Positions 7,743 through 56,564 of a stretch of 64,000 nt of DNA are shown here, piece after piece. Position numbers and translations under genes: made by a program. Under the pieces are notes generated by a model. It was not told the DNA's origin and made no database searches. It saw only the letters and a program-made list of their open reading frames with translations. The DNA lies in the IMG/VR virus record IMGVR_UViG_3300032173_000004, positions 1 to 64,000 of that record. One strand, given 5' to 3'. This DNA comes from a virus. How positions within the stretch are numbered: the stretch's first letter is position 1; every line of letters begins with the position of its first letter.

Positions 7743-7752
7743 GAACGTTCTC

Positions 7753-14631: not shown

Positions 14632-16097
14632 GTCGTTGTTGTGTTCTTTGCCAAGTACGTGTTCGCCGGTGGAGGCAGAGCAGCCTTCGTCATGAATGCC
14701 GTGATCGCCTCGACGTACTTCTGCCAAGCCGTTGCAAGGGCAGCAAACGGTGGATTTAGAGGCGTCAGCGGAGGAGCCTTGGTGGCGGCATCAAGGGCCT
14801 GCCACTGCGCATAGGTAGTGGAGGCACAAGCAAGCTCTTTGGCCAAATAGTCTGTCCCGAGATCGGTCAGGAATGGTGGTCCAAGAACTGGTGGAACGCC
14901 CACACCACCAATGGCCAGCGGACCGGTGATGTTCACTTTTCCGCTGACCGTCATGGTGCTACCCTTCAGGTCAATCACCCCTCCGCTCTTTGTCACGATC
15001 TGTATTTCATCGCTGAGAACATTGATCTGGGAGCCATCGTTGCTCCAGATCTGCAACTTGCCCTCGGCGATGTTGATCATAGTCCCTTTGGCAGTACCTT
15101 TGCTGACTACGATCGAGATCGTGTCTTCGGCCTTGACGGCGCACTCGCCTTTCTTGCCACCATCGCTTTCGGTGTTCTCGCAGAAGAGGTTAAAGCTGGA
15201 GGTCTTCTCCAGGGTCTCCCACTCCTTCGATCGTCGATAGGTTCTCTTGGTTGCCCGGGTCTTCGGAGACCCTGTTACAGGCTGATCTGGGTGTGGAAGA
15301 TCAACGTCAGTCACAGGAGTGGACTTGGTACTTCCGGCTCCCAGACGAGGGTTCTGATGTTCCTTCTCGTTGAAGTTGATCTCGAGCTGGCAGGTCTTAC
15401 CAACATCGACCTGTACGTGGCCACCTTTGTCGACCAGCTTCCGAGTCAGCTTCCCATCCTTGATCGAAACCTGAGAGTTGGCTTCCGTGGTGTCCAGGTA
15501 CACATCTCCGGTCTTGTTGATCGCGAAGATGGTACCATTGACCCTACGAATAAACCGAGATCGATTCTTCTTGATGTCGGTCTGAACAAGGGCCTTCTCT
15601 TTGTACCCATGACCGCTCGTAGCCAGATCGAACGGGTTCGACGGATGTGGCCACCACCCCATGATGAACGGAAGCTCGATACGACCACCAATGAAGCCAA
15701 TCAAGCACCACTCACCGTCGAGCTTGGCGTAGTTGACCTTGCTGAAATCGCTGCTCAGCGTGGACCCATCCACCAACTCCGAGCATCCACGAGGAAGGTC
15801 TTCCTCGTAGTTGTCGACGCCAGAGTGTCGGCCAGGAGGAACCGTGACATGCTTGATCAGAATATCCGGCTGCTGGCCGATGTGGTCCGTGGCCAGGACC
15901 GTGCATTCGTGTCGGATACCTCGGAAGTCATCCGACTGCAGCGCTGTGTAGTTGTCTACAGCGTCCGCCGGAACTACGGACAGGATGATCCCAACCAGAG
16001 GGTGCATGCCCTGGTCGGCTTCGAGAGACCGAAACTGGTGTTGCGAAGACGAGAGGACAGTTCCGTCCTCCATGTAGCAGTTGACTCTGGCCGTCAT
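14628..16097 (-). CDS. Baseplate central spike (gp5/gpV-like)
   Basis: OB-fold-like DGEWCLIGFIGGRIELPFIMG, then beta-repeat region (TMINIAEGKLQIWSNDGSQINV); located after the hub gene. Confidence 0.7.
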   Translation of the reverse strand: MTARVNCYMEDGTVLSSSQHQFRSLEADQGMHPLVGIILSVVPADAVDNYTALQSDDFRGIRHECTVLATDHIGQQPDILIKHVTVPPGRHSGVDNYEEDLPRGCSELVDGSTLSSDFSKVNYAKLDGEWCLIGFIGGRIELPFIMGWWPHPSNPFDLATSGHGYKEKALVQTDIKKNRSRFIRRVNGTIFAINKTGDVYLDTTEANSQVSIKDGKLTRKLVDKGGHVQVDVGKTCQLEINFNEKEHQNPRLGAGSTKSTPVTDVDLPHPDQPVTGSPKTRATKRTYRRSKEWETLEKTSSFNLFCENTESDGGKKGECAVKAEDTISIVVSKGTAKGTMINIAEGKLQIWSNDGSQINVLSDEIQIVTKSGGVIDLKGSTMTVSGKVNITGPLAIGGVGVPPVLGPPFLTDLGTDYLAKELACASTTYAQWQALDAATKAPPLTPLNPPFAALATAWQKYVEAITAFMTKAALPPPANTYLAKNTTTT

Positions 16098-18412: not shown

Positions 18413-18415
18413 GGA

Positions 18416-39517: not shown

Positions 39518-40960
39518 CTAGGATACCAGCTGGCCGATGTTCACCATCCGCAGCCACTTCTTCGGCGCGAACAGGATCGGCGTGCCGTACAGGAGGATCT
39601 GCCACCTGTAGGCCGGAGCCAGAACCGCGAGGTCCAGGCGCATCATCGGAGCCAGCTGCCGGAACGTGAGCACCTGCGGAGTCAGCTCGCCCATGTAGGC
39701 GATGCTGGTGAACGGCAGGAGGAAGTTCACGTCGTTGCCTGTGGTCGTGCCACTGCCGGCCTGAGACGCTGCCGGGATCTGCATGATCAGGCTGTAGGAA
39801 GCGCCCGTCGAGGGAACTCCCGCGCTGGATGCACGAGCCTTGGTGCGGTACACGCGGAAGAACTCTGGAGGGAAAGCGCCGATGGCAGCTGCGTTGGTGA
39901 TCGTCAGCGGCAGGTGCTGGCCCGAATCCTTGTTGCCCTGAGTCAGGCTGCCCGCTGCGGACACCATGACCGGTGCGCTCTCGCCGAAGCGATTGCATGC
40001 GGTCACGGCATAGCAGTACTCGTTGGTCCCGGCGAAGGCGCCCTTGTTGAAGTCGCCATCCGTGCCGGCGCCAGCGCCCGCTGCGATCGAGGTGGGGGTG
40101 GCGGGAGCGTTGGGGTGCGTCGCCGCCGCAGGCGGGATCGGGAGCGGACGAATGAACACGTCCGGGTTGAACTCGATGTGACCCGCCTGCGTCGCCATCG
40201 AGTTGATCGCCTGGCCGATGACGCCGTTGACCGGCGCCGGCAGGCTGACCCGCTCACGCGGGTACATCGTCTTGGTGAGGTCGCTGAGGGCCCGCGGGTT
40301 GAGGAACAGATCCGTCGGGTAGGCGTAGTTCTCGACGAGGATGTTGCTGGCCTCTTCGATGTCCGCCTCGGTCAGACTGTTGCCCTGCAGATCCACGAAC
40401 GCCGTCGGATCGATCAGCGCGTCGAGACCATCCCACTGCTCTGCCTCGCCGTCGTAGGCGAGAGCGCTGTCAGCCGTGAAGAGTGCCGTCTCGACACGCT
40501 CCAGCAGCCACAGGATGCCGTTCTGGTTCTCGAGCGCGATGATGTCACCGTGCGCGGGGTGGACCAGCGTGGCCGGGTGGGTCACTTCCCGGGTCGTGCC
40601 CAGGAACTTGACCAGCTGCGTACGGCGGACGTAGCTCGAGTCAGTGCTGGGAGGCAGCTCGCCTTCCATCGTGAACGCGAAGCTCCCGGGGCCGTACGAC
40701 GTCAGCTGGTTGTACTCCTCGACGGTGGAGTACGCCGGGCTCTTGGGGATCTTCTTCCAGAACTTGATGTGGTGGTTGGTGTAGGTGACCACCTTGAGAC
40801 TGGCCTCGAGCGACTCCACGCGGAGTGCGCTACCACCGGTCTGGTTGGTGATCTGGTAGCCGGCCTCGAGGGCCTTGCTCAGCTCACGGATGTCCTGCGC
40901 GGGGGCCAGGCCGAAACCGTTGAGCCCCTCGTAGTGCGCCAGGGAAACCTGCGGGTACAT
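39518..40960 (-). CDS. Major capsid protein, SPO1/Herelleviridae type
   Basis: ELSKALEAGY...GGSALRVESLEASL...FWKKIPKSPAYSTVEEYNQ; YAVTACNRFGESAP insertion; AAGGAGG RBS; double TAG stop. Confidence 0.95.
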   Translation of the reverse strand: MYPQVSLAHYEGLNGFGLAPAQDIRELSKALEAGYQITNQTGGSALRVESLEASLKVVTYTNHHIKFWKKIPKSPAYSTVEEYNQLTSYGPGSFAFTMEGELPPSTDSSYVRRTQLVKFLGTTREVTHPATLVHPAHGDIIALENQNGILWLLERVETALFTADSALAYDGEAEQWDGLDALIDPTAFVDLQGNSLTEADIEEASNILVENYAYPTDLFLNPRALSDLTKTMYPRERVSLPAPVNGVIGQAINSMATQAGHIEFNPDVFIRPLPIPPAAATHPNAPATPTSIAAGAGAGTDGDFNKGAFAGTNEYCYAVTACNRFGESAPVMVSAAGSLTQGNKDSGQHLPLTITNAAAIGAFPPEFFRVYRTKARASSAGVPSTGASYSLIMQIPAASQAGSGTTTGNDVNFLLPFTSIAYMGELTPQVLTFRQLAPMMRLDLAVLAPAYRWQILLYGTPILFAPKKWLRMVNIGQLVS

Positions 40961-40990: not shown

Positions 40991-42007
40991 TTAGCGGCCA
41001 TTGCCCTGGATGCGTGCCTGAATCTGCGTGAGCAGGTCAGGACGGATCTCCCCGGTCGTGTCGAACTTGATCACCTCGAGAGGGTTGATCTGGCTCTTCT
41101 CGACCATCTCCTGCAGCACCGCGATCACCTGACCCTTGGACAGGTTCTCCCCGCCCGCGGGACCGCCGAACGACTTGTTCAGCACGGTGCTCTGCTGGCC
41201 ACCCGGGAGAGCCCGAAGCTGGCTCTTGGGGGCGCCAACAGGCAGCTGAGCGACCTGCTCGACCTGCTGCAGGCTGCCCGCGATGCCGTGACCGATGTTC
41301 GCCACGGCCTCGGCAAGCGACTTGTTGAACTCGGCCTGCTCGGACGCGAACTGCTGCAGAGCCGCGAAGAGCTGGTTGCCGATGTCCAGGGAGTAGGCCT
41401 GCTGACGCTGCTCGACGGCAGCCAGACCCGTGCCGAAGGACTTGGCGAACTCGGCCAGGAACTCGGAGACCTCAATCCCCTTGTGGACCGTATCGTTGCT
41501 CGAAAGAACCTCGGACATGGACTTGCCGAACGGGAACCCGCCCTTGTCGTCCTTGCCCTTGTCCTTCTTGCCATCCTTCTTGTCGTCCTTGTCGTCGTCA
41601 TCGTCGTCCGCGTCCATGCCCTTCATGGCCGGGGGCTTCATGCCGCCGCCGACACCCATCCCGCCAGCGCCGGTGATCGGACCGGCCTTGTCGAGATCCG
41701 ACTTGAGGAGCGCCAGCTCGTCGACGGACAGCGGAAGGCCCTTCTTGACCTTCATCCGAATCGACTTGCGAACACCACGCTCGTTGTAGTCGGTCCCATC
41801 GGGCTTGATGTCGTCGGCGCCGGGGCCGTTGCCCGGGACGTCGGTGACCTTGCCTGCCGGCCAGTCGCGACGCTCGCTGTTCGGGCCGGTGCAGATCTGG
41901 GACTTGTTCATCGGTTCCCCGGTCTGACCACCCTTCGCGAGAGCCTCCAGGCGAGCCAGGCTCTTGTAGAACTCCTCGCTGCGGATCGTGGCCTCCTGCG
42001 GTGCCAT
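40991..42007 (-). CDS. Scaffolding protein
   Basis: Start re-called at MAPQEATIRS (AGGAGG RBS); acidic stretch, coiled coil, more than 10 x-x-K[S/A/G] sites; between protease and capsid. Confidence 0.8.
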   Translation of the reverse strand: MAPQEATIRSEEFYKSLARLEALAKGGQTGEPMNKSQICTGPNSERRDWPAGKVTDVPGNGPGADDIKPDGTDYNERGVRKSIRMKVKKGLPLSVDELALLKSDLDKAGPITGAGGMGVGGGMKPPAMKGMDADDDDDDKDDKKDGKKDKGKDDKGGFPFGKSMSEVLSSNDTVHKGIEVSEFLAEFAKSFGTGLAAVEQRQQAYSLDIGNQLFAALQQFASEQAEFNKSLAEAVANIGHGIAGSLQQVEQVAQLPVGAPKSQLRALPGGQQSTVLNKSFGGPAGGENLSKGQVIAVLQEMVEKSQINPLEVIKFDTTGEIRPDLLTQIQARIQGNGR

Positions 42008-42018
42008 CTCTTCGCCTC

Positions 42019-43014
42019 CTAGTTTGTGAGTCCGTTCATTCGAAAGACAGCCTTGGCCACGATCTGGGCCTGTGGCTGTGTGAGTTTGCGTTCCACCATC
42101 AGCCATGCAACGGACTCTCCGAAGCTCATGGCCTCCGGCAACGACTTCCGAACATGCTCAGGATCAGAGTGACCGTACCGAAGATCACTCATCCGACCTT
42201 CCAGACTTTGAACCGTGATCGCACGACCTGAAGCTCCAGTAGCTGCGAACGCCTTGGCTGACTCGTTTCGCTTCTGGAGATCCATCTCTTCCTGGGTCAG
42301 AGAACGAATTGCCTTCTTCTGATCCCTTCCACCACCAGAACAGTTGCAGGCTCCACAGCACTTGCCGCCCGAAGACTCTTGGCACGATCCACGCTCTTCG
42401 CGGTGAGCTTTGTAGACCATGTCTGGAGTAATCGAGATCGACTTGGCATCATCTGCGGCCCACCACTCCACTGGCAGGGCGTTCAACGACTTCACGACTT
42501 CGAGCCAGGTGTTGGTGTTGATCGGAGCTGCCGTGATGGCAATGTCCTGGATCCAGCACTTGATGATGGTCTTGCCAGTGCGGCGAAGAACCTTGCCCTG
42601 GATCGAGAAGCCCACCTTACGGTTCGATCCTGATGCCTCGAGAGCCAGAATCAGCTCCCAGATCGAATCAGCCTCCTTGTGGTTCTGGAAGAGGAAGCCC
42701 TTGACGTAGAGACCCTTGGCAGTCACTCGACACTCGGTCGGCTGACCTACCTTGTTCTCGAATCCGGGCTTGTGGTCGTTGTTGAAAAAACCGTGCTTGA
42801 GGAAGTAAGAAAAGTCGATCCCGTGCTGCTTTACGATCTCATCCTGGAGATCCATGTCCTCCGTGGACGCGATGCCTTCGATCCATCGCTTCCCGTCCGC
42901 GGGCTTCTTGGTCTCAGGAGTGGATTTCGTGATCGGCAACCAGAAGGAAAAACCACTCTCTTGAAGAAGATCAAGCATCCAGGATCCAGAAACAAAAAAA
43001 GGGAGGTCGAGCAC
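42019..43014 (-). CDS. Prohead maturation protease (HK97/SPO1 type); alternative start at 42978
   Basis: IEGIASTEDMDLQDEIV...GFFNNDH...VGFSIQG...IAITAAPINTNT. Confidence 0.92.
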   Translation of the reverse strand: MLDLPFFVSGSWMLDLLQESGFSFWLPITKSTPETKKPADGKRWIEGIASTEDMDLQDEIVKQHGIDFSYFLKHGFFNNDHKPGFENKVGQPTECRVTAKGLYVKGFLFQNHKEADSIWELILALEASGSNRKVGFSIQGKVLRRTGKTIIKCWIQDIAITAAPINTNTWLEVVKSLNALPVEWWAADDAKSISITPDMVYKAHREERGSCQESSGGKCCGACNCSGGGRDQKKAIRSLTQEEMDLQKRNESAKAFAATGASGRAITVQSLEGRMSDLRYGHSDPEHVRKSLPEAMSFGESVAWLMVERKLTQPQAQIVAKAVFRMNGLTN

Positions 43015-43093: not shown

Positions 43094-43321
43094 CTACGCA
43101 GGTTTCTTTTGCGTCTGCAAGAAAAGTTTTGGCCTTCGATCACTTGGCTGAATCTTCGACGAGTCCAGCAAGACAGGCACCGGCACTTCCTCGCCGCAGT
43201 TCTTGCACACGGCGAAGGCTTTGCCATCGCGGAACACCATAACCTTGTTAAGGATTTTGACAGTCCCGTTGGCGGACTTCACCACCACACCACCACAAGG
43301 GCAGGTGATGACGTGCTCCAT
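43094..43321 (-). CDS. Zinc-ribbon protein
   Basis: 75 aa; CPC...CKNC; TGATG-coupled to the polyprotein gene. Confidence 0.75.
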   Translation of the reverse strand: MEHVITCPCGGVVVKSANGTVKILNKVMVFRDGKAFAVCKNCGEEVPVPVLLDSSKIQPSDRRPKLFLQTQKKPA

Positions 43322-46300
43322 CAGGCGACGGCCTGGATCCTGGAAATCATCGAATCGAGCAAGGATTTCGCAACGTTGCTATCTTGTCCCTGCTGTGGCC
43401 GATCTTCCTCGATCGGAGAGGTATCAGGCTCATCTTGCAGCTCGAAGCCGTCCGCACCGTCGTCCAGATCTCCCTTGCCCCCGTCCGCGTACTCTCTTCC
43501 ATCGGGAGGAAGAGGTGGATCAGAAACACCCGTTGCCTGCTTGAACGACGCCCACTCTTGATCGTGCTCATGGAGCGGGTGACTGTGAATCCACTCGCTG
43601 AAGGCCTGCTCATCCGGCAGACGATCAGGGTGAGTTGCCGTTACGTGCCAGACCACAGGTCCGTACGTTCCCTGCGCAAGACTCTTCTCGATCTTCTTCA
43701 GCTTCTGGTAGTACTTCGGATCCTCTGTGAGATGATCCTTTGCGATCTCGTACGCAACGCTGGGATCATTGGTGTGCTCCATCTCCACCTTGATCCCCTC
43801 CATCACGCTGTCGAAGTCGAAATCCTTGTCAGCTCTTCCCTCTGCCAAACCACCAGGGATCTTATCCTTGGTGATCATGTAGGGATGCTTGTGAGTCCCG
43901 AAGACCTTGCTCTTGAACTCACGCATGGTCATCTGAGTCATCGATCCGAAAAAGTTCGGATTGTCGTAGTGCTTGAGGTAGGCCTTCTTCGCCTGCTTGG
44001 CCGAATCAAAGCCAAGCATACACTTGTCCTCGTCATACTGCTTGAAGTCCGGCCCCTTCATCTGGTGGATGACGAACACCTTGTCGGAGTTCCGACGTGG
44101 ACCGACGTAGACGTCGACCTCTCCATTGTCCGTCCCCTCCGTCTTACGGATGAATCCGTACGGGTAGAGCATCTTCGTCTCACCCGTCTCTCCTGTCGCG
44201 TGATCCTCCCAACGGCGTATACTGCCGGCAGGATTCTCAATGGAGATCGGCAGGCCCTGAAACACCATCTTGCCTACGACACCGATCGAAGCTCCTGACT
44301 CTCGGTCGTCGATCTTCTGATGAAACGGCTGAGCTTTGCCAAGCTGGTGCTCGCTGCCTTCGAAGGCCGAATTCTCCGACGCCGGCTTCACATGCAACCA
44401 ACGACCGGTCTTCTTGCTATCGACCCACCGGTAGCTACCGTGAACAGCGCCCGTTTCGGGATGAACCACGTCTCCGTGCCACTCCGACTTTGGATGAAGC
44501 TTCAGCTCCGTTCCACTGTGGTCGGTGACCACTGCACGACCCATGCGTCCGCCTGGATCATGAGGAATGTTGATCTCACCTGGCTTCGTGCCGTACGACT
44601 TGTTCAGATCTGGGTTGTGGTGATGGATGGCCGCGATGTAGAGGGCCTCAACCAGCAGAGGATCGACGTACAGCTCCTGAGCAATCCTGTGGAAGCTGCC
44701 ACCGCGGTGACCAAGCATCTGAGCCACTTGAGCCATCGCCTGCTTCGTGATCGCAGGCAGATTGTTCGGCTTCAGGTTGGCTTTCTTGGCAACCAGATTC
44801 TGGAAGACCTTCGAGAACAGCTCAGACCCGTGATAGACACGGAACTGGTTGAGTAGCAACCCAAACTGCTGATCCATGATCTGGGCCAACAGCGACTGGG
44901 GAATCCTCTGTCCGTTGATCTGAAACAGGTAGTCCTCTGGAGACTTGCCCTGCATCAGTTCCTGAAGGACTGCAGATGACTCGGAGTCCATGGTGACCAC
45001 GGACTGATGCGGTCCACCCGTCTTGTCCTTGTAGGTGAACTGGATCGTGTTGCCCTGAGGCGCCACGTCTTTCACCTTGATCGACAGAAGTCCACTTTCG
45101 TCGCCATCGGCCACCATCTTGGCCTGATCCACCAGGGCCATGATGAGACCGAGAGCCCTCTCGCCCGGATCCTGGGACTGGAACAGGCTCGCATACCACT
45201 GACGAACCTTCTCCAGCTGCGCATCGACATGCTTCAGATCCTCATTGAACTTACGCCGAGGATCCTTCACACAGTCGCGGTGGAAGTAGTTGTGCTCGGT
45301 CTTGCCAGTCTCTGGGTCCTGATACCTCTGAGCCCAGTGATAGATATCAGGATCATAGTGATTATTGTCCTCAACCTCAGCACCCTCTGGAGCCGGGCGA
45401 TTGAGCTTTCGACCACGATGATCGAAGAACTGCGGTGCTACATCCGGCGTTGGCTCATGCGGGTGAACCTGAGGCGGACCTGCATTGGGATCATGGTGGG
45501 GGTGACCCTCAGGAGCGTTGGTTCCTCGGACCACGTTGCCTTGTGGATCTTCCCACATGTGCCGATGAGCACCAGGCTCTCCCTCTCTCCAGAGGTACTT
45601 CATGGTGTTGGAGTGCATCGGCTCTCCAGCCATTGCCTTGGCCAGAACATCCAGAGCCTCTTCGAAAAGAAGATCATCGAAGGCCTTGCGGGTGTACTCA
45701 TACTGCGAATAGTCCGGCTCGTACTCCTCACCGGCAACGTCAGCGTACCTTTGGGCGTACTCGTCCTCCGGTTCTTTCGCAGCTGGACGGGACATGGCAG
45801 CCATGCGCTGCCGGTAGGCCTCTTCTTCTTTTCTACGCTGAGCCTGAATCTCCGGTGGGGCGAGATGAGCATACGGATCCTCTGTCGTCCCCGCCTCTAC
45901 TGCTTCCGGCTCCATCATGTGGCCGCCGCCAGCCAGCTCGTGAGCTGCTCCCTGATAGCCTTGCGTCTGCTGAAGCTGCTGTTGACGGGCTACCATCTGC
46001 TCTGGACCTGCCTGGTATCCAGTCCCCATCTTCAGACCCACACCACCAGGCTCACGACCCTGCCGAGCTTGGCCTCCCGGAGCCGGGCGTGCTGTCCACG
46101 ACACCTCTGGCTCCTGGTACGGAACCGCACCAGCCTTCGGGCTGCGCATCACCTCTCCGGTCTCAGGATCGGCGAACTCAGCAGCACTTACCTGCATCGC
46201 ACCCTTCGGCTTGGCAGCCTTGGCACCTTGCCTCTTGATCTCAGGCTGATCACGATACTCCCGCATCTGCTGTTCCTGTGCTGCCGACAAGAACTGAGGC

Positions 46301-48492
46301 AGACTTCGGATCATCTCACCGCGAGCAGTGTTGAGCAGGTGATTCTGAAACCGACCTCGATGCGGATTGTAGGTGTTGATGGCGTGCTCTACTGACGCGC
46401 CGATGGCGTGGCTGGCTAGCTCTTTGGCCAAGTCGTGAGATTGCGGATCCATGTGGCCACTGTACAGACCTCGAGGGCGCAGAACTCCATAGGCAGCCAT
46501 GTTGTAGAGAGGGCCCATGTTCTCGGTCTGGATGTCTCGCTTGACCTTCCGTTCCAGCTCAGGACTGTTGAACTGAAGCTTGGGCGCCATACGAACATTG
46601 CGAATCTCGTGACCCAGAGAGTTGATCGTCGTTCTGACAGCTGTCGGTGCCTCACCCCACGTCCACGTTCCATGCTCCCCGTGCTCAAGAGCATTCGTGG
46701 TCTTCATCGGCTTGCGAGACTCTTTTCCTTCAGGACCACGACGAGGACGCCAGTCTGCGTCGTGCTCCACGTACGACGTGGGTTCCCATCCTGCCGTGTG
46801 CTTCAACTTCTGCCGTTCTGCGGGTGGCGTCGCTCCTCGCTCTTCCTCATCCTTGAGAAAGCGCATCGTCGATGCGTGCTTCGCCACGAAGTTTCGCAGA
46901 TTGTCCGGCGTCTCCGCATGGCCGCGGGACCACTCTCCGGGCTCCTCGCCGTAGGCCTCAGCAAGAGCCTTTCCGTACTTGCTGGTCGTGTCGAACTGAG
47001 TCAGTGGCTTTCCAGTCCCTGTCTTCGGGCTGCGCCAGTGAAGCCACGGCTGACCATGAGGATCGTACTCCGTGTTGACCTGGTTCTGCAGCAGATGCCT
47101 TTCGAAGTCAGCCATTGATCCAGGTCGATATGCCTGCTGCACGTTGGTCTTGCCAGGGGTCTGTCCGGGACCGTAGACGACAACAGAGCCCTTGGTGAAC
47201 TTGGGCACACCTTTTTCGTCAACTGCGATCTCTTTCTGTTTGCCTGGCTGATCTCCCTTGCCACGGCGTCCCGCACCTCGGGCAGAGCCAGGCATGTGGA
47301 TGATCTTGTCCTCGGTCTTGCCCGTGTCCTTGTTGAACAGCTGAGCCGGGAACGAACCACCCTCAGCGACATGCCACGCTCTCGAGTGATGATAGGCCTC
47401 CTCGGGAGAAGACACGTTGGCAGCCTTGGTCTCTGGGTGGATGTCCATCGTGTGACCTGACAGACGACCCATGTGTTGAATGCCGTGGTGGCCCTCGGGA
47501 TGCATCTCACCCGTGTAGGCGTACTGCCAACGGCCATTCTCCCACCACCTTTTGACGTACTGGTGACCCTGCTTCTCAGGAGCCGCCACAGGCTTCTGGG
47601 GCGCCGCAGCTGCCACTGGGGCTGCCGGAGCCTTGGGAGCCGCTGCGGGGGCTTCCTGAGCCGCTGGAGCGCCTCCAGCAGCCTCTGCTTCGCCCAGAGC
47701 TTTGGACAGCAAGCCGCCCTCGAAATCCGGCCTCCAGCACCACAGGATACCGGTGGCTCCATCCAAAGAGCGTGCCAGGATGTTGGTGAACTTCTCCATA
47801 CCAGCTCGGTCACCAGCCCCAAGATACCGGCGGATCTCCTGAATCGGATTGGTCATGGGAACCTTGATCCCGAGCACCTCCGACCAGGGCCTGCGCTGAT
47901 TCTTTCCCGGTCGGATCGGTCCCGGAGCTTTGTACTTGGTGTCTGACGTTCTCTCGTAGCCATACTTGAGAGCCAGAGGATCACCATTGGCGTCACGCGG
48001 CGTGTAGTCTCCGAAGGTGTCGACAGGCGACACTTGAGACGACATCACAGCGATCGACTTGGTGGCTTCCTTCTCTTCGTCCTTCTCCGTTTGCTCTTGA
48101 GCTTCTTCCTGCGCTTCGCCACTGTCCTGAGCATCCTGGGCAGCCTGCTCGTTCTCCTCTGCTTGACCAGAGTTGATCATGTCCTGGCGCTTCTCTTCAC
48201 GCTTTCGCTGCAACTCTTCAGGATCACCACCGCGGAAGGTGCCTTCTTCTGACGGGTCCTTGGCCTTGCGAACCACAGGATTCTTGCGATCTGTGGTATT
48301 GACCCAGCTTGGCTCCATCCAGTCCGGCAGGCCGTCTGGTGTCGACTTGTCCACCTCAGCTTCCTGCCGCTTCTCTTCCCTCTTCTCCTGCATGTCCACC
48401 GGGTCACCACCGCGGAAGGTCCCATCCCCATCGCTATCGGACGCTTTGGAGATCATCTCATTGATGAGGTCGTGAGAGCTGCTAAGCCGCAT
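43321..48492 (-). CDS. Large polyvalent head-associated protein: sigma-region-2-like, topoisomerase IB-like, inorganic pyrophosphatase (InPase) and DUF5661-like domains
   Basis: Start re-called at MRLSSSHDL (GGAGGG RBS). InPase: GLPISIENPAGSIR...YGFIRKTEGTDNGEVDVYVGP...DEDKCMLGF. DUF5661-like: GIKVEMEHTNDPSVAYEIAKDHLTEDPKYY. TopIB-like: GLLSIKVKDV...DKTG...FRVYHGS...LGH...YVDP. Confidence 0.85.
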   Translation of the reverse strand: MRLSSSHDLINEMISKASDSDGDGTFRGGDPVDMQEKREEKRQEAEVDKSTPDGLPDWMEPSWVNTTDRKNPVVRKAKDPSEEGTFRGGDPEELQRKREEKRQDMINSGQAEENEQAAQDAQDSGEAQEEAQEQTEKDEEKEATKSIAVMSSQVSPVDTFGDYTPRDANGDPLALKYGYERTSDTKYKAPGPIRPGKNQRRPWSEVLGIKVPMTNPIQEIRRYLGAGDRAGMEKFTNILARSLDGATGILWCWRPDFEGGLLSKALGEAEAAGGAPAAQEAPAAAPKAPAAPVAAAAPQKPVAAPEKQGHQYVKRWWENGRWQYAYTGEMHPEGHHGIQHMGRLSGHTMDIHPETKAANVSSPEEAYHHSRAWHVAEGGSFPAQLFNKDTGKTEDKIIHMPGSARGAGRRGKGDQPGKQKEIAVDEKGVPKFTKGSVVVYGPGQTPGKTNVQQAYRPGSMADFERHLLQNQVNTEYDPHGQPWLHWRSPKTGTGKPLTQFDTTSKYGKALAEAYGEEPGEWSRGHAETPDNLRNFVAKHASTMRFLKDEEERGATPPAERQKLKHTAGWEPTSYVEHDADWRPRRGPEGKESRKPMKTTNALEHGEHGTWTWGEAPTAVRTTINSLGHEIRNVRMAPKLQFNSPELERKVKRDIQTENMGPLYNMAAYGVLRPRGLYSGHMDPQSHDLAKELASHAIGASVEHAINTYNPHRGRFQNHLLNTARGEMIRSLPQFLSAAQEQQMREYRDQPEIKRQGAKAAKPKGAMQVSAAEFADPETGEVMRSPKAGAVPYQEPEVSWTARPAPGGQARQGREPGGVGLKMGTGYQAGPEQMVARQQQLQQTQGYQGAAHELAGGGHMMEPEAVEAGTTEDPYAHLAPPEIQAQRRKEEEAYRQRMAAMSRPAAKEPEDEYAQRYADVAGEEYEPDYSQYEYTRKAFDDLLFEEALDVLAKAMAGEPMHSNTMKYLWREGEPGAHRHMWEDPQGNVVRGTNAPEGHPHHDPNAGPPQVHPHEPTPDVAPQFFDHRGRKLNRPAPEGAEVEDNNHYDPDIYHWAQRYQDPETGKTEHNYFHRDCVKDPRRKFNEDLKHVDAQLEKVRQWYASLFQSQDPGERALGLIMALVDQAKMVADGDESGLLSIKVKDVAPQGNTIQFTYKDKTGGPHQSVVTMDSESSAVLQELMQGKSPEDYLFQINGQRIPQSLLAQIMDQQFGLLLNQFRVYHGSELFSKVFQNLVAKKANLKPNNLPAITKQAMAQVAQMLGHRGGSFHRIAQELYVDPLLVEALYIAAIHHHNPDLNKSYGTKPGEINIPHDPGGRMGRAVVTDHSGTELKLHPKSEWHGDVVHPETGAVHGSYRWVDSKKTGRWLHVKPASENSAFEGSEHQLGKAQPFHQKIDDRESGASIGVVGKMVFQGLPISIENPAGSIRRWEDHATGETGETKMLYPYGFIRKTEGTDNGEVDVYVGPRRNSDKVFVIHQMKGPDFKQYDEDKCMLGFDSAKQAKKAYLKHYDNPNFFGSMTQMTMREFKSKVFGTHKHPYMITKDKIPGGLAEGRADKDFDFDSVMEGIKVEMEHTNDPSVAYEIAKDHLTEDPKYYQKLKKIEKSLAQGTYGPVVWHVTATHPDRLPDEQAFSEWIHSHPLHEHDQEWASFKQATGVSDPPLPPDGREYADGGKGDLDDGADGFELQDEPDTSPIEEDRPQQGQDSNVAKSLLDSMISRIQAVA

Positions 48493-48772
48493 TGGGACCC
48501 TCCGGGACGTCGCTCTGCGCACCAAGACCGCCGCCTTCCTGACCAGCGTTCTGCTTCATGTACAGGACATGATCTCGACCCTTGGCCGTACGGAGAAGCT
48601 CATCGATCTTGGTGTGAAGCTGCTCGTCGTGGATGTACATCTGCTCCAGCTTCTCAAGGCGCTGGATGATCTGTCTCATCTCGTCCAGGTCTTGAACCTG
48701 AAACAGGTAGCTCTCGTCAGGAAGAGCTGCTTGAGAAGCATTCAGAAGCGAATGAGCCTTGGAGTCGATCAT
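48482..48772 (-). CDS. Hypothetical protein
   Basis: 96 aa, helical; operon context. Confidence 0.7.
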   Translation of the reverse strand: MIDSKAHSLLNASQAALPDESYLFQVQDLDEMRQIIQRLEKLEQMYIHDEQLHTKIDELLRTAKGRDHVLYMKQNAGQEGGGLGAQSDVPEGPNAA

Positions 48773-48775
48773 TGT

Positions 48776-49675
48776 TCAGTCCTTATCAGGAAACGCCTTG
48801 TCAGGATCAACAAGCGTGTACTCACCCTTCTTGTTCCACCCCCAACCAGGGGGCACGTATCGCATCCGACAGAAACAGTGCGGATGAAGAGGGGGTATGA
48901 CAGGACGAGCATGCTGCCGCCATGGCCTGACATAGTTCGATCCCTCATTCGACATCAGCACCGACAGCTTGAAGATCTTTGGGTTGCCAGTTTTTGGATC
49001 AAGGTACAAACGCTTGCAGTCTTCACATGCGTCTGGAGCAGGAACAATCGCCACATCGCTGTCGATTCCGTCGGAGTCCTTGTAGAAGTCAACCTTGCCA
49101 ATGATCGACTGTGCGATGCCGCGCTGCCTGACCGAGTGCATCTCTGTTGAGGCCACCCGGGACCAGTTGCGCTTGTCCTCCTTCAGACTGACAACCAGCT
49201 CCTTCATCACGTCCAGATATTTCTGGTTGAGGATGACACCAGTCTTGACCGCATCCTTGATCACACCACGTACCTGAGCCTCTGACACCGCTGCCTTGGT
49301 TTCAGCTGCCAGCTTGGAGTAGAGACCGTTGGCAATGTCCTCTCCTAGCGCCCGGTACTTGGAGTGGGCTGACAGCTCTGAGGCCTTGACCTGCAGGTTC
49401 TCGATGGGAGTCAAAGGACGCTCAGCGTCTTTTGTCAGGTCCGTCCAACCGTACTGCGTCCACTCCGTCTGCTTCATGACCGCTTCTTGCTCGCCCAGCA
49501 CGAAAGCAAGTTGGATCAAAGACGACGGAAGCTGTGTCGACATCTCAGCCGGAACAGCCACTGATCCTGGGTGTGGAGTTTGAGCGTCACCAAACAGACG
49601 CCATAGAAACCAACTCACATGGCGTTGGATGATCTCGAGGATCTTCTCCAGCTGTTGCTTGGTGAGCACCGACAT
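48776..49675 (-). CDS. Head morphogenesis protein (MuF/SPP1 gp7-like)
   Basis: WSRVASTEMH, ACEDCKRLY, PPLHPHCFCR. Confidence 0.85.
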   Translation of the reverse strand: MSVLTKQQLEKILEIIQRHVSWFLWRLFGDAQTPHPGSVAVPAEMSTQLPSSLIQLAFVLGEQEAVMKQTEWTQYGWTDLTKDAERPLTPIENLQVKASELSAHSKYRALGEDIANGLYSKLAAETKAAVSEAQVRGVIKDAVKTGVILNQKYLDVMKELVVSLKEDKRNWSRVASTEMHSVRQRGIAQSIIGKVDFYKDSDGIDSDVAIVPAPDACEDCKRLYLDPKTGNPKIFKLSVLMSNEGSNYVRPWRQHARPVIPPLHPHCFCRMRYVPPGWGWNKKGEYTLVDPDKAFPDKD

Positions 49676-49692: not shown

Positions 49693-50664
49693 CTACACCG
49701 TGACGTAGAGGGATTTCTTTGCCTTCTTCTTGGACCGACCTGCCATGCTGTACGCGATGGCGATGGCTTGGTCCTGAGGCTTTCCCTCGTGCATCAGCAA
49801 CCTGATCTTGTCACTGACCCACTGGTCGCTCTTAGACTTGCGCATCATCCCTTCCAGAATTGATCTGGCAAATGTAGCTCCATGTGGATCTACAATCTGC
49901 GACTGACGAGCCTGAGTCAAAAGATCAGACATTGGTTTCTTACTACCCTTCAGCCGATCAGACTGCTCCAACTGACGTTCGGCCATAGGTGTGGCAACCT
50001 GGTACGTTGGACCACCTTCTTCTGTACCAATCTTCCACGGCGCCCGAGCTTCCTGGGTTGCTTTTCCTCCCAGGACTCCTATGTGCGCAGACAAGGCAGC
50101 ACTGACGTGAGGTTCCGAATAGCTCTTCGGATTCCTCGCATAGTGCATCATCATATCGTAGTGATGATCTGGCCCTGAAGTGATCCCCAAACCTTCGAGG
50201 TGTTGAATCTTGCGATTGGTATCGGCAAGCAGATTAATCCGGCGCTGAACGTCAGGGTGAGTGGCGTCGTGACCAGAGGCCTGGTGACCATTCAGCTTCT
50301 CGGTCAGATGCACCTTCATCGCCTGCAGACGAGCATGCTTGTGCTCTGGAGAAGAAACATCAGGACCCTCGGGATGCGCCCCCTCGGACACGTCAATCGC
50401 CGCCTTGTGCAGATAGTCCGCGTGTGCCCGAACAGCTTTGAACAGATCCATTCCCTTCGTCAGGTCATCACGGATCACGAGCGCCGGCTGCGGAGGTGAC
50501 GGAGGACGAAGACCGGTGATCACACCGTTCACCATTCCTTGCGTCGACACAGGACCCACTTCTGCTTGCAGAGGCGACTTCTCCATAACGATTCCACCAA
50601 GAAACGCAGATGGCCGCTCAGCGGAAACAAGTCGTCGGGGACCAATCATGTCAGCTCGGATCAT
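49693..50664 (-). CDS. Putative internal head protein
   Basis: 323 aa; LTKG, LFKA, LHKA, MRKS sites; C-terminal KIRLLMHEGKPQDQAIAIAYS motif common in phage head-region proteins. Confidence 0.65.
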   Translation of the reverse strand: MIRADMIGPRRLVSAERPSAFLGGIVMEKSPLQAEVGPVSTQGMVNGVITGLRPPSPPQPALVIRDDLTKGMDLFKAVRAHADYLHKAAIDVSEGAHPEGPDVSSPEHKHARLQAMKVHLTEKLNGHQASGHDATHPDVQRRINLLADTNRKIQHLEGLGITSGPDHHYDMMMHYARNPKSYSEPHVSAALSAHIGVLGGKATQEARAPWKIGTEEGGPTYQVATPMAERQLEQSDRLKGSKKPMSDLLTQARQSQIVDPHGATFARSILEGMMRKSKSDQWVSDKIRLLMHEGKPQDQAIAIAYSMAGRSKKKAKKSLYVTV

Positions 50665-51965: not shown

Positions 51966-53936
51966 CTAGTCGATGAAAGAAGAGATCAGGGTGCCGTTCT
52001 GACTCTTGGCCATGTTGGTCTGACCCATCGTGCTGCAGGACGGGCACTTGTCCTCCATGCCCTTGTGCAACGTGTAGGTTCGTCCACAGCCGTCGCAGCT
52101 CTTAATGATCGGAGAGCGATGCGTCCTCTCGTCCTCGTCATGCTCGAGGATGTTGAGCACCTCAGCATTGAGGGGACCTGCACCAGCGTGCTTGGCAAAC
52201 ACCGAGTTGCCACGAGTCATCGCCTGGGTGGCGGACCTCCAGGTGTCCATCGACACAGCCAGAGCCCTCGGCAAGCGAGGAACCGACATCGAAGTCACAG
52301 CCTTGCTGACCTCGGACTCGTTGCCAGCCGCAGCGGCACCGTGAACCGGACCCTGCTCCTTCTTGGGACAGCCAGCAGACTGCTTCCCGTGAACCTTGCC
52401 CTGAGAAGGACCCTTTCCAGCGTAGTCCTCCTCGTCGGACTTGTTCATCTGAGAAACGTTACCAGGTGCTGCTGTTCCGTGAACCGAGCCCTGGCTTGAC
52501 CGAGAACCAACGTGATCCTCTTCTTCATTTGGAGCGACGCTCGTTTGGGCTGGCCCGATCCCCATGTGCGCCGAACCGTGAACTGGGCCCTGGCTGGCGC
52601 GAGCCGCCACATGGTCCTCTTCGGCGTTGGGAGTGACACTCATCTGAGCAGGTCCAGCGTTCGGATGCTGTGCCCCGCGGACTGGCCCCTGCCGGTTGGC
52701 ATCATTGCCGGCGAAGCACTTCATCATGTCCTGCAGCATCTCGATCGCTGACTTCTTCATGCTCTTCTCCTTGGCGGCAGCAGCTGGGATGGGTGGTGGA
52801 GTAGCTCTAGCGGATGTCAGAACGTCGCCACCGTGAGACACCGTGTGCAGACCCGAGGCTCCACCCACTCTAACCGATCCCATAGACAACCTCGGCTTCG
52901 CCGCAGCGGCTGGAGTGCTTGGGGCGAACTTGGTTGGTTGCGGCTTTCCCTCCTGAGCCAAGATCGTTCGATGCTCTTCTTCTTTGACAACATGCTCCGG
53001 GAGCTTCACCCCTCCCGCCGTCGGAGTCCCCGCTGGTCTAGTCCCTGATCCAGAGAACGTGGCCCCCTGCTTCCCGATATTCACGCTGCCGAGGTAGGCC
53101 TTCTCTGTCGTGTCAGACTTGATGGCTGGCTCTGGGAACAGCCGTATGCCCTTTGCCGAGCACGACTTGCCCATGGCCCTGTTGACGCTGCCACTGAGAA
53201 AGTTCGCGTTGGCACTCGATCGCCACGCCTTCTGACGATTTGCGGGAGTAGGGTTGTGAGCAGCGACGTGATGATCCATCGCCGCCTGCATATTCGCGTG
53301 GAAGGCCTTCTCGTGATGCTCCTTGAGCGGCCCGCCCTTCGCTGCATGACTCTGATGCTCTTGGGCCGCGTCGAAGTACGGCTTCACGTTGCCCGCATGA
53401 ATCTCACGGGGCTCATAGCCGAGCTGCTTCGCTTCTTCGGAAGACTTCATCATGGAGTCCAGCATGTCTCCAGCTTGCGATTTTCCCATCATCTTGCTCC
53501 CGGTTTCTTTGATCCGTTTTTCACGATGTTCTTGAGAAAGACGAGCACCCGGCCTGTCTATCCCAAGCTTTGGAAGCCCGGGAGCCGGCTTGTCCAGAAT
53601 CGATTCCACTTCTTTTGAACCACCTTCGAAGTCCTTGTGAACGGCAACAGACTTCTCGGCCCCGACCTGAACGTTGTGACGGATGGTGTGAGTGATCCTA
53701 GATGGAATCACTCTCTGACCACGGTACTTCGGAGCCAATCTCTTGGCTCCGCTAGTCAGCACCTTCTGCTTCTTGCTCTTGGCCGGCTTGAGCTTCTTCT
53801 TCTTTTCAAGTGCCTTGTCCATGAGACACTCCATAGCTTTCTGGGCCGACGTGTGAAGCTTTCCCGGCTCCCACTCCTTGACAGAACCACCAGGATCAAA
53901 ACGACCCTGTTCTCGTCTGGGCTCAGCGGGATTCAC
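51966..53936 (-). CDS. Low-complexity putative internal head protein with QGxVHG repeats and C-terminal Zn ribbon
   Basis: 656 aa; many K[S/A] sites; CDGC...CPSC. Confidence 0.7.
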   Translation of the reverse strand: MNPAEPRREQGRFDPGGSVKEWEPGKLHTSAQKAMECLMDKALEKKKKLKPAKSKKQKVLTSGAKRLAPKYRGQRVIPSRITHTIRHNVQVGAEKSVAVHKDFEGGSKEVESILDKPAPGLPKLGIDRPGARLSQEHREKRIKETGSKMMGKSQAGDMLDSMMKSSEEAKQLGYEPREIHAGNVKPYFDAAQEHQSHAAKGGPLKEHHEKAFHANMQAAMDHHVAAHNPTPANRQKAWRSSANANFLSGSVNRAMGKSCSAKGIRLFPEPAIKSDTTEKAYLGSVNIGKQGATFSGSGTRPAGTPTAGGVKLPEHVVKEEEHRTILAQEGKPQPTKFAPSTPAAAAKPRLSMGSVRVGGASGLHTVSHGGDVLTSARATPPPIPAAAAKEKSMKKSAIEMLQDMMKCFAGNDANRQGPVRGAQHPNAGPAQMSVTPNAEEDHVAARASQGPVHGSAHMGIGPAQTSVAPNEEEDHVGSRSSQGSVHGTAAPGNVSQMNKSDEEDYAGKGPSQGKVHGKQSAGCPKKEQGPVHGAAAAGNESEVSKAVTSMSVPRLPRALAVSMDTWRSATQAMTRGNSVFAKHAGAGPLNAEVLNILEHDEDERTHRSPIIKSCDGCGRTYTLHKGMEDKCPSCSTMGQTNMAKSQNGTLISSFID

Positions 53937-55899
53937 GTTGCGACCTCATGAAGTCGATGAAGTTGTCGAAGGTGACCGACTTGCCAAACAGCCCCGCATA
54001 CTGCTTCTTCGTGTCGGGATGATTCGGCCCGGCAGGAGCGGCAGCCTCGGGTGCTTGTTCGTCACTTGTTGCGCTCAGATCTGGTTCGGCTGACTCGTCA
54101 GCTGGTGGAGTCATCTCAGGTTCGCCAGGCTGCATGCCAGCACCCGCCAGCTGTGCCCCACCTTGAGCCACCTTCTGCTGAAGTAGCTCCATTTCCAGAG
54201 GATGCTTGTCCTCGTTGTGACGGACCTTCTGCTCCTTTTCAGGATCTGGTGGCTCCTGCTGCTGATCCTGCTGCATACCTTGCTCTTGCTGAGCCTGTTG
54301 TTCCTGTCGATCACGCAAGGTATCTTCTCGCTGCTGCTGAATTTGGAGCAGCTGCACCAGCGTAGGATTGAGAGGAATCTCACCGATGCCACCAGGGATG
54401 TCAGGAAGATCAAGCTGACGACGAGCTTCATTCAGCGTCAGATAGCTACCGATCTGCTCCGTCAGAAGCTCGTGCTTCTCTTGTTCTGTCAGCTCATCAA
54501 GTCCAGCAAACTCGAACACAAAGTGATCATCGATCTTGTCGATGATGTACTCGTTGATGAGTCCAGCAATGAACTTGAGAAGCGGCTTGAGACCACGGTC
54601 ACGAGATGCCTTGAGCTTCCACTCCTGGCTGCTCTCGAAAAGTGGAGTCTGCTGTACGCCACCGTGCAGGTCGAAGTTGATCTCAGCCGGGTCAATAAGG
54701 TACACACCGCAGGTAATCTTGATCAGGTATTCCAACCAACCCTGAAACCCCATCTCCTGATTCGATCGCTGCAGATCAACCCACTCGAGGCCTTCAGACT
54801 GAGTGACAGGGGTCTTCCACGCGTTCTCAGCACCTGCCACCTGGGCCGCCCACTGTCGACGAAAAGCCTCAAGCTGCTCCAAGGTCCAGTTGTCACCCTT
54901 GAAGTTGAGGATGCCTTTCGGGTTGGCGCCTTGGCTGAAGAAACGACGATTGTACTCTTCGGCGTACAGAACACCGGTGATGATCGTGATCAGCTGCTCC
55001 AGCTCTCCGTACCCATACCCCTGAATGTAGATGTCCGATCGAGGGTTACGGATGCCGAATGCCATCTCGTCCTCGAAGTAGACATTTTCGATCTGACCGT
55101 TCACAACCTGGACGTAACGAACCGATTGCCCGACGACATCTTGCTCACCGTACGTCTGTCCCTCGTAGAGGTTGGTGAACCGGTGAGGCCTCTGCGTCGG
55201 GATCATCGAGTTGCGCTGATGATAGCTGAAATGCATTCCGGCGTCTCGATCTGGGGACGCCAACCGCATCGTCGACGCGTCCGTCGCCCAGAATTCGAAG
55301 GGAATGCCGTTTCGACGAGGAACGACTTCGAAAGTGAGCTGGTCGAAGGTCAACGTGTCTCGGACGATGCACTTCAAGAAGGCTTCGAACTTGGGCCTCC
55401 TCATGCGAGTCCACGGATTCGATTGACCGGGCTCTCCACAGCACGCGATGAAGGCCTCAGCCCTCTGAATGAAGTCGCGCTCTGCATCATCAGTGTGATG
55501 GTCTGGGCTCTTGTGCTTGATCTGATAGCCAAGAGACTTGGTCGTTCGATAGGGCTCGGAGAACGCAGCCACCTGAGCGATACGCGTGTTGATGATCGCG
55601 CCAATAATTGACACCTGATGTGCAACCCGGCGCAGCGTATCGTAGGTCAGATTGTACCGACGATCCTTGTAGCCAAGAGAGTACTGCAGCGTCAATGGAT
55701 CGAAGAATACCGACTTCGGTCCACGCTTGGCTGGGTCGTTATGGATGCCAGCAGTCGGGTCTTCCGCCTTCCTCAGCATCGCCGGGATGTGGCGAGTCAT
55801 CTGTCTCAGCTCGTGAACAGCCGAGAAGATCTCGTCGGGATTGGTGGTTTCCCCGAGGGACTTGACTATATCCGTGTAGTCGATCGGTGTTCGGTTCAC
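53923..55899 (-). CDS. Portal protein, SPO1/Herelle type
   Basis: Start re-called at the GTGA overlap (GGGGAG RBS); AIINTRIAQV, FLKCIVRDTLTFDQLTFE, IRNPRSDIYIQGYGYGELE, FFSQGANPKGIL, YLIDPAEINF, SRDRGLKPLL. Confidence 0.95.
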   Translation of the reverse strand: MNRTPIDYTDIVKSLGETTNPDEIFSAVHELRQMTRHIPAMLRKAEDPTAGIHNDPAKRGPKSVFFDPLTLQYSLGYKDRRYNLTYDTLRRVAHQVSIIGAIINTRIAQVAAFSEPYRTTKSLGYQIKHKSPDHHTDDAERDFIQRAEAFIACCGEPGQSNPWTRMRRPKFEAFLKCIVRDTLTFDQLTFEVVPRRNGIPFEFWATDASTMRLASPDRDAGMHFSYHQRNSMIPTQRPHRFTNLYEGQTYGEQDVVGQSVRYVQVVNGQIENVYFEDEMAFGIRNPRSDIYIQGYGYGELEQLITIITGVLYAEEYNRRFFSQGANPKGILNFKGDNWTLEQLEAFRRQWAAQVAGAENAWKTPVTQSEGLEWVDLQRSNQEMGFQGWLEYLIKITCGVYLIDPAEINFDLHGGVQQTPLFESSQEWKLKASRDRGLKPLLKFIAGLINEYIIDKIDDHFVFEFAGLDELTEQEKHELLTEQIGSYLTLNEARRQLDLPDIPGGIGEIPLNPTLVQLLQIQQQREDTLRDRQEQQAQQEQGMQQDQQQEPPDPEKEQKVRHNEDKHPLEMELLQQKVAQGGAQLAGAGMQPGEPEMTPPADESAEPDLSATSDEQAPEAAAPAGPNHPDTKKQYAGLFGKSVTFDNFIDFMRSQRESR

Positions 55900-56564
55900 G
55901 ATAGCAACTCCCCAATCGACTTCTGGACCGTCGCGGTCAGCCACTTATTGAATGCGGCACGCAGTCTGGGAGGCATGATGAATCCCCGGTCGATATCCTC
56001 GTCCGAGTACCCATGCATCTGCAAGAACTGCTTTTCCCGAGGGGCCACGAACGGACCAGGGCTGAAGCGGGGAGCTGCCACGAAGGCCTTCTTGGCCTCC
56101 TCATTTGCCCCCTGCATGATCTTCTGAACAGCCTTGTCCGCGTCTGGTTCCTGATCAACTAGGTTGATCGGAGGCTTGTCGACGTTCTCGTTCTTCGGCT
56201 CTGGACTCTCAGGCCAGTGAGCGCCGCGGTTCGGCAGATCTGGAGTCTCAACACCGCGAATTCCAGAAGTACTGTGACCGTCACTGTACTGAGTAGCTCT
56301 CTGGCCCTCAGTCTGCGGAAGCAGAGCAGTCGATCCAGGATTGGCCTTTACCGCCATTGCTCGCAGCAGATCCGTGGCCTTCTTCGTCGTCGCTGCGGCA
56401 GTCTCAAGACCATTCTCTGGGTCTGGCTCCAGCTTCTCGAACTGAGAGTCAGGCATGGACTTGATTTTGATCTTCACCTTCCTGTCCCGGTCCGAGTTGT
56501 CCCGAACATCACGGACAGGCCGATGAAACAGCTTCGAGTGGAGATACAATGACGGGATGCTCAT
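55896..56564 (-). CDS. Hypothetical head-cluster protein
   Basis: About 222 aa; start re-called at MSIPSLY; VQKS near the C-terminus. Confidence 0.65.
   Translation of the reverse strand: MSIPSLYLHSKLFHRPVRDVRDNSDRDRKVKIKIKSMPDSQFEKLEPDPENGLETAAATTKKATDLLRAMAVKANPGSTALLPQTEGQRATQYSDGHSTSGIRGVETPDLPNRGAHWPESPEPKNENVDKPPINLVDQEPDADKAVQKIMQGANEEAKKAFVAAPRFSPGPFVAPREKQFLQMHGYSDEDIDRGFIMPPRLRAAFNKWLTATVQKSIGELLS

Follow-up and report, generated by a model that had tools for sequence, protein, structure and literature searches.

A candidate head cargo polyprotein in an SPO1/Herelle-type phage, with capsid-maturation-type sites in the linkers between its modules

The viral DNA analysed here (the window) comprises positions 1 to 64,000 of IMG/VR record IMGVR_UViG_3300032173_000004, i.e., the first 64 kb of a 75.8-kb contig, and our subject is a long open reading frame (ORF) in its head operon, further referred to as the polyprotein. 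The ORF occupies 43321-48492 on the minus strand, within an open frame spanning 43321..48525, is intact and encodes 1723 amino acids (aa; 192 kDa). Its start, ATG 48492, is preceded by a GGAGGG ribosome-binding site 8 nt upstream and agrees with the starts of the homologues (M..L.DEMISK↓A, where the arrow marks the presumed cut), while the stop codon (43321-43323) and the start codon of the following gene overlap in TGATG. The same polyprotein is also present on a 118-kb contig. The head operon, read along the minus strand, contains the portal gene, a 656-aa ORF, a 323-aa ORF, a MuF-like gene, a 96-aa ORF and the polyprotein, followed on its 3' side by a 75-aa ORF (likely a zinc ribbon), the prohead protease, the scaffold and the major capsid protein (MCP). 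The order from portal through MuF, the 96-aa ORF, polyprotein, small ORF, protease and scaffold to MCP is kept in those IMG/VR relatives whose contigs are long enough. An earlier note, made from the sequence of this DNA, had described an ORF of ~1720 aa between a MuF gene and the prohead protease as a string of unrelated modules; the ORF and its neighbours are confirmed here, the match of the MuF-like minor head protein encoded upstream (48776-49675, minus strand; phrog_115, 2.2e-5) being weak.

The borders of the domains were taken from two AlphaFold models built on family alignments, and their identity was assessed with Pfam, PHROGs, Foldseek and VIA. The family alignment holds 15 members, the window protein and 14 metagenomic homologues with 30-47% identity. 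The protein opens with a propeptide-like helix of 16 aa (48445..48492, minus strand as for all modules below), which ends in MISK↓A at site 16 and is kept as ..DEMISK↓A in 9/14 homologues. It is followed by two acidic FRGGDP..KREEKRQ units, aa 17-76 and 77-145 (48058..48444), each beginning directly past a K↓A site and ending at sites 76 and 145, respectively; the duplication of the repeat GTFRGGDP...KREEKRQ (residues 24-44 and 84-104), reported previously, is thus borne out. No other element of the family is as well conserved as this unit; its FRGGDP begins 3-11 residues past a K↓A/G site and, within the first cargo gene, always lies close to the N-terminus. A function of FRGGDP as a general head-targeting tag was considered and is unsupported: at a related locus with the modules split across genes (L011), only the first gene has it. 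The basic module at aa 146-264 (QVSPVDTFGDY..., 47701..48057), also found apart in other proteins, ends in LLSK↓A at site 264, kept in 11/14 homologues; residues 146-243 were modelled with a weak fold and 244-307 as disorder.

The central part of the polyprotein is a large folded unit, aa 308-760 (46213..47571; predicted local distance difference test, pLDDT, 80-95), composed of a His-rich sub-module (GHQYVKRW..), unknown folds and a helical sigma-like end. The subsequent disordered or low-confidence helical tail, aa 761-952 (45637..46212; disorder and weak helices over 761-961 in the models), ends in VLAK↓A at site 952, which is kept in 13/14 homologues. The type IB topoisomerase (TopIB) module, aa 953-1298 (44599..45636), contains both TopIB domains, is folded over 962-1295 and ends in DLNK↓S at site 1298. 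A spacer, aa 1299-1386 (44335..44598; modelled disorder 1296-1403), ends in QLGK↓A at site 1386. It is largely an insert private to this phage, of which homologues P0013 and P0003 have no more than short pieces, and in most relatives the two flanking site positions lie just a few residues apart. The next segment (43684..44334) joins InPase (aa 1404-1533) and DUF5661 (aa 1559-1603) and ends in KIEK↓S at site 1603, residues 1534-1609 around DUF5661 being modelled as low-confidence helices. The last segment (43366..43683) consists of a small, confidently modelled conserved domain, aa 1610-1673 (GPxVWHVSV..HPMHEHDQHW), and an acidic tail ending in VAK↓S at site 1709; residues 1674-1723 were modelled as the acidic disordered tail plus a terminal helix. 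This amphipathic helix of 14 aa, SLLDSMISRIQAVA (43324..43365), resembles the N-terminal ..DEMISK helix. A short helix of the type ..LLDSMISK recurs at the N-terminus and the C-terminus of the polyprotein and in the 656-aa ORF, and it may be an element recognised by the protease or the prohead. The idea that the module boundaries are marked by a common motif holds; residues 1299-1386, however, are a disordered insert and not a module.

For the counts, the strict motif was defined as [LIVMF]-x-K-[SAG], with the cut after Lys. All eight sites named in the earlier note (MISK↓A, ATK↓S, LLSK↓A, VLAK↓A, DLNK↓S, QLGK↓A, KIEK↓S and VAK↓S) are present, at residues 16, 145, 264, 952, 1298, 1386, 1603 and 1709. 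The strict motif occurs 10 times in the polyprotein against 5.0 expected (p 0.03). When the units of the AlphaFold models were treated as domains and the remainder as linkers, nine of the ten occurrences fell in linkers. Pooled over the 15 members, the linkers contained 137 motifs versus 31.8 expected (4.3x) and the folded domains 14 versus 52.6, a depletion of about fourfold, and this split was seen in each of the 15 sequences. The linkers are poorer in hydrophobic residues than the domains, yet enriched in the motif. Control motifs in which R, E, D or Q replaced the Lys, or in which the P1' or P3 class was changed, showed no linker/domain partition. A cruder control, which used conserved dipeptide classes and weakly conserved flanks of ±40 columns, gave no discrimination because such flanks extend into the adjacent domains; it was superseded by the linker/domain partition. 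The earlier note had made its proposal depend on the motif being commoner at domain boundaries than inside domains, and this is what the partition found.

The conservation of the sites follows the same pattern. Nine sites (16, 76, 145, 264, 952, 1298, 1386, 1603 and 1709) are conserved in 8-13/14 homologues, with a hydrophobic residue at P3, against 0-6/14 for the window protein's other 13 K[S/A] sites. Sites 264, 952, 1298, 1386, 1603 and 1709, which are all six that were modelled, lie in low-pLDDT segments between folded units. The signal is the placement and conservation of the motif, not its raw count. Enrichment extends to other proteins of the head module: the scaffold, said before to be saturated with the motif, has 14 strict sites versus 2.0 expected (p 3e-8), i.e., one per ~25 residues, and the 656-aa ORF, the 323-aa ORF and the protease have 10 versus 3.3, 5 versus 1.4 and 5 versus 1.6, respectively. 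The tail and other genes of the window have 30 versus 28.7. In six related IMG/VR loci the head modules contained 41-65 motifs against 13-28 expected, and the downstream genes 21 against 23.4. The different patterns of sites in the scaffold and the polyprotein fit destruction of the former and separation of the modules of the latter.

The link to capsid maturation comes from the MCP (39518-40960, minus strand; phrog_752, 4e-100), which is 42-46% identical to the MCPs of Bacillus SPO1-group phages. Its propeptide, aa 1-29 (40874..40960), ends in ELSK↓ALEAG, and K-ALEAG is invariant in the relatives. K29↓ALEAG aligns to ALNK↓ALEAG of SPO1 gp6.1 and to DVVK↓SFQTGY of phi812. Searches of the available literature found no published statement of the cleavage site in an SPO1/Herelle MCP, and a comparison with a PDB chain was used instead: the chain in entry 9row corresponds to the phi812-type MCP minus its first 24 residues and begins with SFQTGY. 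Together with the alignment, this start places the mature N-terminus of the homologous MCP exactly after this Lys. The linker motif is, as postulated, identical with the capsid maturation site, and that site is homologous to an experimentally defined mature N-terminus. The presumed processing enzyme, the prohead protease (42019-43014, minus strand; phrog_1028, 5.8e-53), shows 47% identity to SPO1 gp3.2 in its N-terminal half (180 aa); a PDB search with it gave no sequence relative.

Three of the domain assignments made earlier, TopIB, InPase and DUF5661, were recovered by Pfam, and the folds of the first two also by AlphaFold and Foldseek. Topoisom_I (PF01028) matches residues 1080-1263 (E 1.4e-15, 57.8 bits versus a cut-off of 23.7), and the profile is matched by 15/15 family members. 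The model of aa 962-1295 (AlphaFold2, AF2, pLDDT ~90) retrieved human, variola, D. radiodurans and archaeal TopIB in Foldseek with E 5e-11 to 2e-6. Among the catalytic pentad, the Lys (FTYKDK), the second Arg (QFRVY), the His (LGHR) and the nucleophile Tyr1276 (QELYVDP) are present in the window protein. TopIB enzymes work without ATP. InPase (PF18823) matches residues 1407-1529 (E 4.6e-35, 120.9 bits versus a cut-off of 26.8), its model retrieves family I pyrophosphatases of the OB-type fold (E ~2e-3), and acidic residues E1419, D1455, D1460 and D1487-E1488-D1489 are invariant. The family profile also matches the InPase-like C-terminal domain of gp19 in the phage portal structure 9b41. InPase occurs in virion polyvalent proteins, and removal of pyrophosphate or attack on nucleotides has been proposed as its role early in infection (PMC5512222). 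DUF5661 (PF18905) matches residues 1559-1603 (E 3.9e-10, 40.4 bits versus a cut-off of 27), AF2 confidence being low in this part.

The sigma-like end of the middle unit, a helical domain resembling sigma factor domain 2 at ~aa 593-745 (46258..46716), was recognised through Foldseek, VIA, Pfam matches of homologues and the family alignment. Homologue P0022 matches Sigma70_r2 (PF04542) with 24.5 bits versus a cut-off of 24, aligned to window residues 688-727, and three more family members match it more weakly (E down to 3.5e-4). A family motif, AVNSYNP...G.RFSTHL, resembles the core-binding segment of sigma region 2.1-2.2. Sigma domain 2 structures head the Foldseek matches of the model, with weak scores (top 5h6x, E 0.27; range 0.27-2; root mean square deviation ~3.3 Å over 87 residues), and in an exhaustive VIA search most of the top 30 rows were sigma domain 2, including the sigma2-only T4 gp55 (7d7d_F), with Z 6-7.5 over 85-118 residues. 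Hence a sigma2-like fold of this segment has moderate support from the models and alignments; such a fold is not evidence of sigma function. Pfam detected no sigma region 4 in the polyprotein, and conserved aromatic residues of the -10-recognition type were not visible in the alignment at residues 685-735. The VIA rows cover only the sigma-like part, and aa 308-643 gave no Pfam or NCBIfam match, no Foldseek PDB match at E<=1e-3 and no usable ESM Atlas match. The His-rich sub-module within this region (aa 308-565; 46800-47571) has conserved Y312, R315, W322, Y324, Y326, H331, H336, G337, H347 and H352 and also heads other ~1000-aa proteins without a Pfam family. It may bind metal.

Comparison of the homologues, which the earlier note had suggested, revealed module swaps, insertions and separate genes, usually flanked by the motif. 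DUF5661, which is C-terminal in the window protein, is N-terminal in P0013 and there flanked by ALMK↓A and VIEK↓G. P0004, P0005 and P0010 share an insert of ~130 aa (..PGYVYHATNE..GSWHPL..) of no known family, which follows InPase/DUF5661, precedes the C-terminal domain and has motif sites at or close to its two ends. One family member has a GNAT domain, and in P0033 InPase precedes the His-rich module. At locus L013, InPase alone forms a 277-aa gene adjoining the portal, and at L011 the modules are spread over four genes. In the latter locus, the cargo region between MuF and protease includes a 1899-aa ORF (14129-19828, plus strand) and a 938-aa ORF (5070-7886, plus strand) without a Pfam family; FRGGDP is present in the 938-aa ORF and absent from the 1899-aa one. 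In members that lack DUF5661, InPase is directly followed by a site, PQMIK↓[S/A/G], which the subclade of the window protein has lost (MITK↓D). Due to this loss, InPase and DUF5661 probably stay joined in the subclade.

We consider it reasonably probable that the ORF encodes a head cargo polyprotein of an SPO1/Herelle-type phage, which is co-assembled with the head and cut in its linkers, its pieces leaving with the DNA and acting early. Since the linkers carry the same after-Lys motif as the capsid trimming site, loading into the head and cutting are the better founded parts, and cleavage of the polyprotein by the prohead protease seems likely from the sequences. The precursor would enter the prohead together with the scaffold, and the protease would cut after Lys at nine linker [L/I/V/M/F]-x-K↓[S/A/G] sites, giving fragments of 1.9, 6.8, 7.8, 13.2, 76.0, 39.2, 9.6, 24.8, 11.7 and 1.5 kDa. 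The predicted products include the 16-aa propeptide, two acidic FRGGDP peptides, the 13-kDa basic module, a 76-kDa unit with the sigma domain-2-like fold, a 39-kDa TopIB, a 25-kDa InPase-DUF5661 piece and the 12-kDa C-terminal domain. The scaffold, full of sites, would be shredded, and the cargo domains would survive because they lack internal sites. The folded pieces would stay with the DNA, most likely exit the head with it and act at the very start of infection. This last step, suggested by the nature of the domains and by the T4, phiKZ-like and N4 precedents, is a more tentative proposal that could nearly as well be right as wrong. Possible roles of the pieces are in DNA topology, contact with host RNA polymerase, and hydrolysis of pyrophosphate or nucleotides; the known partner of a sigma2-like domain lies in the host. 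The most specific version we regard as doubtful: here the head would carry a pyrophosphatase, a cofactor-independent TopIB and a factor that binds RNA polymerase through sigma2 only, which the capsid protease releases from one precursor and which are injected with the DNA. If true, it would mean that the phage takes over host transcription and fixes DNA topology before any phage gene is expressed.

Several observations weigh against this cargo model or favour other explanations. The count of raw K[SAG] in the polyprotein is at chance level (28 versus 26.4 expected), and the pooled p-values of the motif analysis overstate independence because the 15 sequences are related. The chance-level count speaks for an explanation in which the ORF encodes a multidomain replication or transcription protein that is not part of the virion and merely lies within the head operon, with motifs as a by-product of linker composition. 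We find this explanation highly improbable in view of the conserved position between MuF and protease, the motif enrichment confined to head-module proteins, and the linkers, which are less hydrophobic and yet hold 4.3 times the expected number of motifs while the controls with other residues are flat. It is also rather improbable, if somewhat less so, that the protein is packaged and ejected uncut, as a 192-kDa polyvalent protein similar to the N4 virion RNA polymerase, and that the motifs have another use, such as docking it, with no cut, to the protease, the scaffold or the inside of the capsid. The motif ends short amphipathic helices (..LLDSMISK) that are possible binding elements, and some giant polyvalent proteins are known to be packaged uncut (PMC5512222). 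However, the capsid cleavage site and the sites filling the scaffold have this very motif, folded domains are depleted in it roughly fourfold, as would be expected only of sites that are cut, and relatives encode the same modules as separate genes.

The state of the enzyme-like domains speaks for the strongest of the alternatives, still an unlikely one, in which the polyprotein is a processed internal head or scaffolding-core component whose domains work inside the capsid, possibly organising DNA, binding a genome end or helping in packaging or exit, the enzyme-like ones being mainly DNA- or protein-binding relics, with no action in the host cytoplasm. The first catalytic Arg of TopIB reads Lys in the window protein (DQAKM) and is Arg in only 3 homologues, so that the Arg-Lys-Arg-His-Tyr pentad is incomplete; the general-acid Lys varies across the family, and the nucleophile Tyr, kept in 8/15 family members, is lost in 7/15, for which reason the domain may be a DNA clamp in some of them. 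In InPase, the D-x-D-x-x-D signature has Gly in place of its middle Asp both in the window protein and in two close relatives (DNGEVDV versus DGDxVDV in most members). As judged from these residues, such partly degenerate enzymes are compatible with binding, a structural function or catalysis alike. The polyprotein gene, moreover, sits with the scaffold and the protease, and InPase is fused to portals in other phages. On the other hand, the window protein and its closest relatives retain K, R, H and Y in TopIB, no clear purpose suggests itself for a sigma domain-2-like fold in a capsid, and the turnover of modules, with GNAT and other inserts, looks like that of conflict-type effectors (PMC5512222). 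The sigma-like domain itself counts less for the cargo model than it might, as its match scores are middling (Z < 8, and Z 6-7.5 is common among helical domains) and the segment in the window protein has no Pfam match even at E up to 10. The sigma-region-2-like segment claimed earlier thus stands, at moderate strength, on four homologues, weak Foldseek matches and VIA, and does not stand on a Pfam match of the window protein. Finally, tblastn of TopIB and the middle modules against 50,697 GenBank phage records gave no match, i.e., no cultured phage in that set has them.

The remaining genes of the operon, all on the minus strand, show features of their own. The identity of the portal (53923-55944) is confirmed. 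The 656-aa ORF after it (51966-53936) has internal repeats (..QGPVHG..GPAQ.SV.PN.EEDHV..), a C-terminal CxxC..CxxC pair and helices of the MLDSMMK↓S type, and it is probably a further protease substrate or cargo protein. The final 45 residues of the 323-aa ORF (49693-50664) match phrog_2423 (E 3.6e-12). The 75-aa ORF (43094-43321), whose ATG overlaps the stop of the polyprotein, contains two Cys pairs (CPCG ... CKNCG) and is likely a zinc ribbon; all relatives have it at this position, with 41-57% identity. At its C-terminus the protease is extended by ~150 aa (aa 180-331; 42019-42480) not covered by the SPO1 match. Several motif sites and a Cys-rich stretch, CQESSGGKCCGACNCSGGG, lie in this extension, which perhaps serves self-trimming or targeting. 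The scaffold ORF as listed (40991-42106) overlaps the protease gene by 88 nt, and the alignments of its homologues begin only at residue 30-40; the internal Met at residue 34, 12 nt past the protease stop, is the more likely start.

The closest concept to the polyprotein is the class of phage polyvalent proteins (Iyer, Burroughs, Anand, de Souza, Aravind 2017; PMC5512222), for which InPase was defined, packaging predicted and a zincin peptidase proposed for processing. The likeness includes unrelated effector-type domains in one polypeptide, location among head genes, a MuF-type neighbour, InPase, turnover of modules, and predicted packaging and delivery. Unlike in those proteins, the processing has apparently been passed to the prohead protease via linker motifs; Pfam and PHROGs found no peptidase domain in the polyprotein, including the zincin-like MPTase that many, though not all, polyvalent proteins have. 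This would be a second route to separating multi-enzyme polyvalent proteins, with the capsid protease in place of a built-in peptidase. With the capsid maturation of Herelleviridae (phi812, SPO1), the system shares a homologous protease, a homologous MCP, a homologous cut after Lys and the hydrophobic P3, and it differs in that the same code reaches a multi-enzyme protein and other proteins of the head module. The rule (hydrophobic-x-Lys, then Ser, Ala or Gly, in linkers only) may predict head cargo and its mature products in uncultivated SPO1-like phages, and the natural set of protease sites and stable domains could be used for loading foreign proteins into capsids.

The domains point to phage-head cargo not described before, a type IB topoisomerase and a sigma-like domain. 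Poxvirus TopIB is carried in the virion. The domain described here shares with the poxvirus and bacterial enzymes (1a41, 2h7f, 2f4q/3m4a) the two-domain fold and the Lys, second Arg, His and Tyr, but has Lys for the first Arg, is embedded in a polyprotein and belongs to a family half of which is without the Tyr. Among the papers retrieved by a literature search, none ties TopIB to phage virions, and in the text of PMC5512222 TopIB occurs solely in the title of a cited reference. With sigma-70 domain 2, including T4 gp55, the helical domain shares the fold match and the YNP...G.RFSTHL motif, and four homologues hit Sigma70_r2; unlike sigma-70 factors, it is not accompanied by a detectable region 4 and forms part of a folded unit of 450 aa with unknown folds. 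If the most specific version of the cargo model, given above as doubtful, is true, the phage head would be a counterpart of the enzyme-loaded poxvirus core and would deliver the first virion-borne sigma-like factor and TopIB in a phage. Trimming of head cargo by the prohead protease is well established for T4 and for phages of the phiKZ/SPN3US type; in their motifs, as here, a charged P1 lies two positions past a defined P3 residue, but the cut is after Glu. The polyprotein resembles the internal proteins and Alt of T4 and the inner-body proteins of phiKZ and SPN3US in being prohead cargo predicted to be trimmed by the maturation protease and then ejected (for SPN3US, PMC10052503, PMC7411985). 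It differs from them in its SPO1/Herelle-like lineage, for which the 50,697 GenBank phage records searched contain no cargo of this type, and in having Lys at P1 and, in one product, ~nine sites that would yield several distinct folded proteins.

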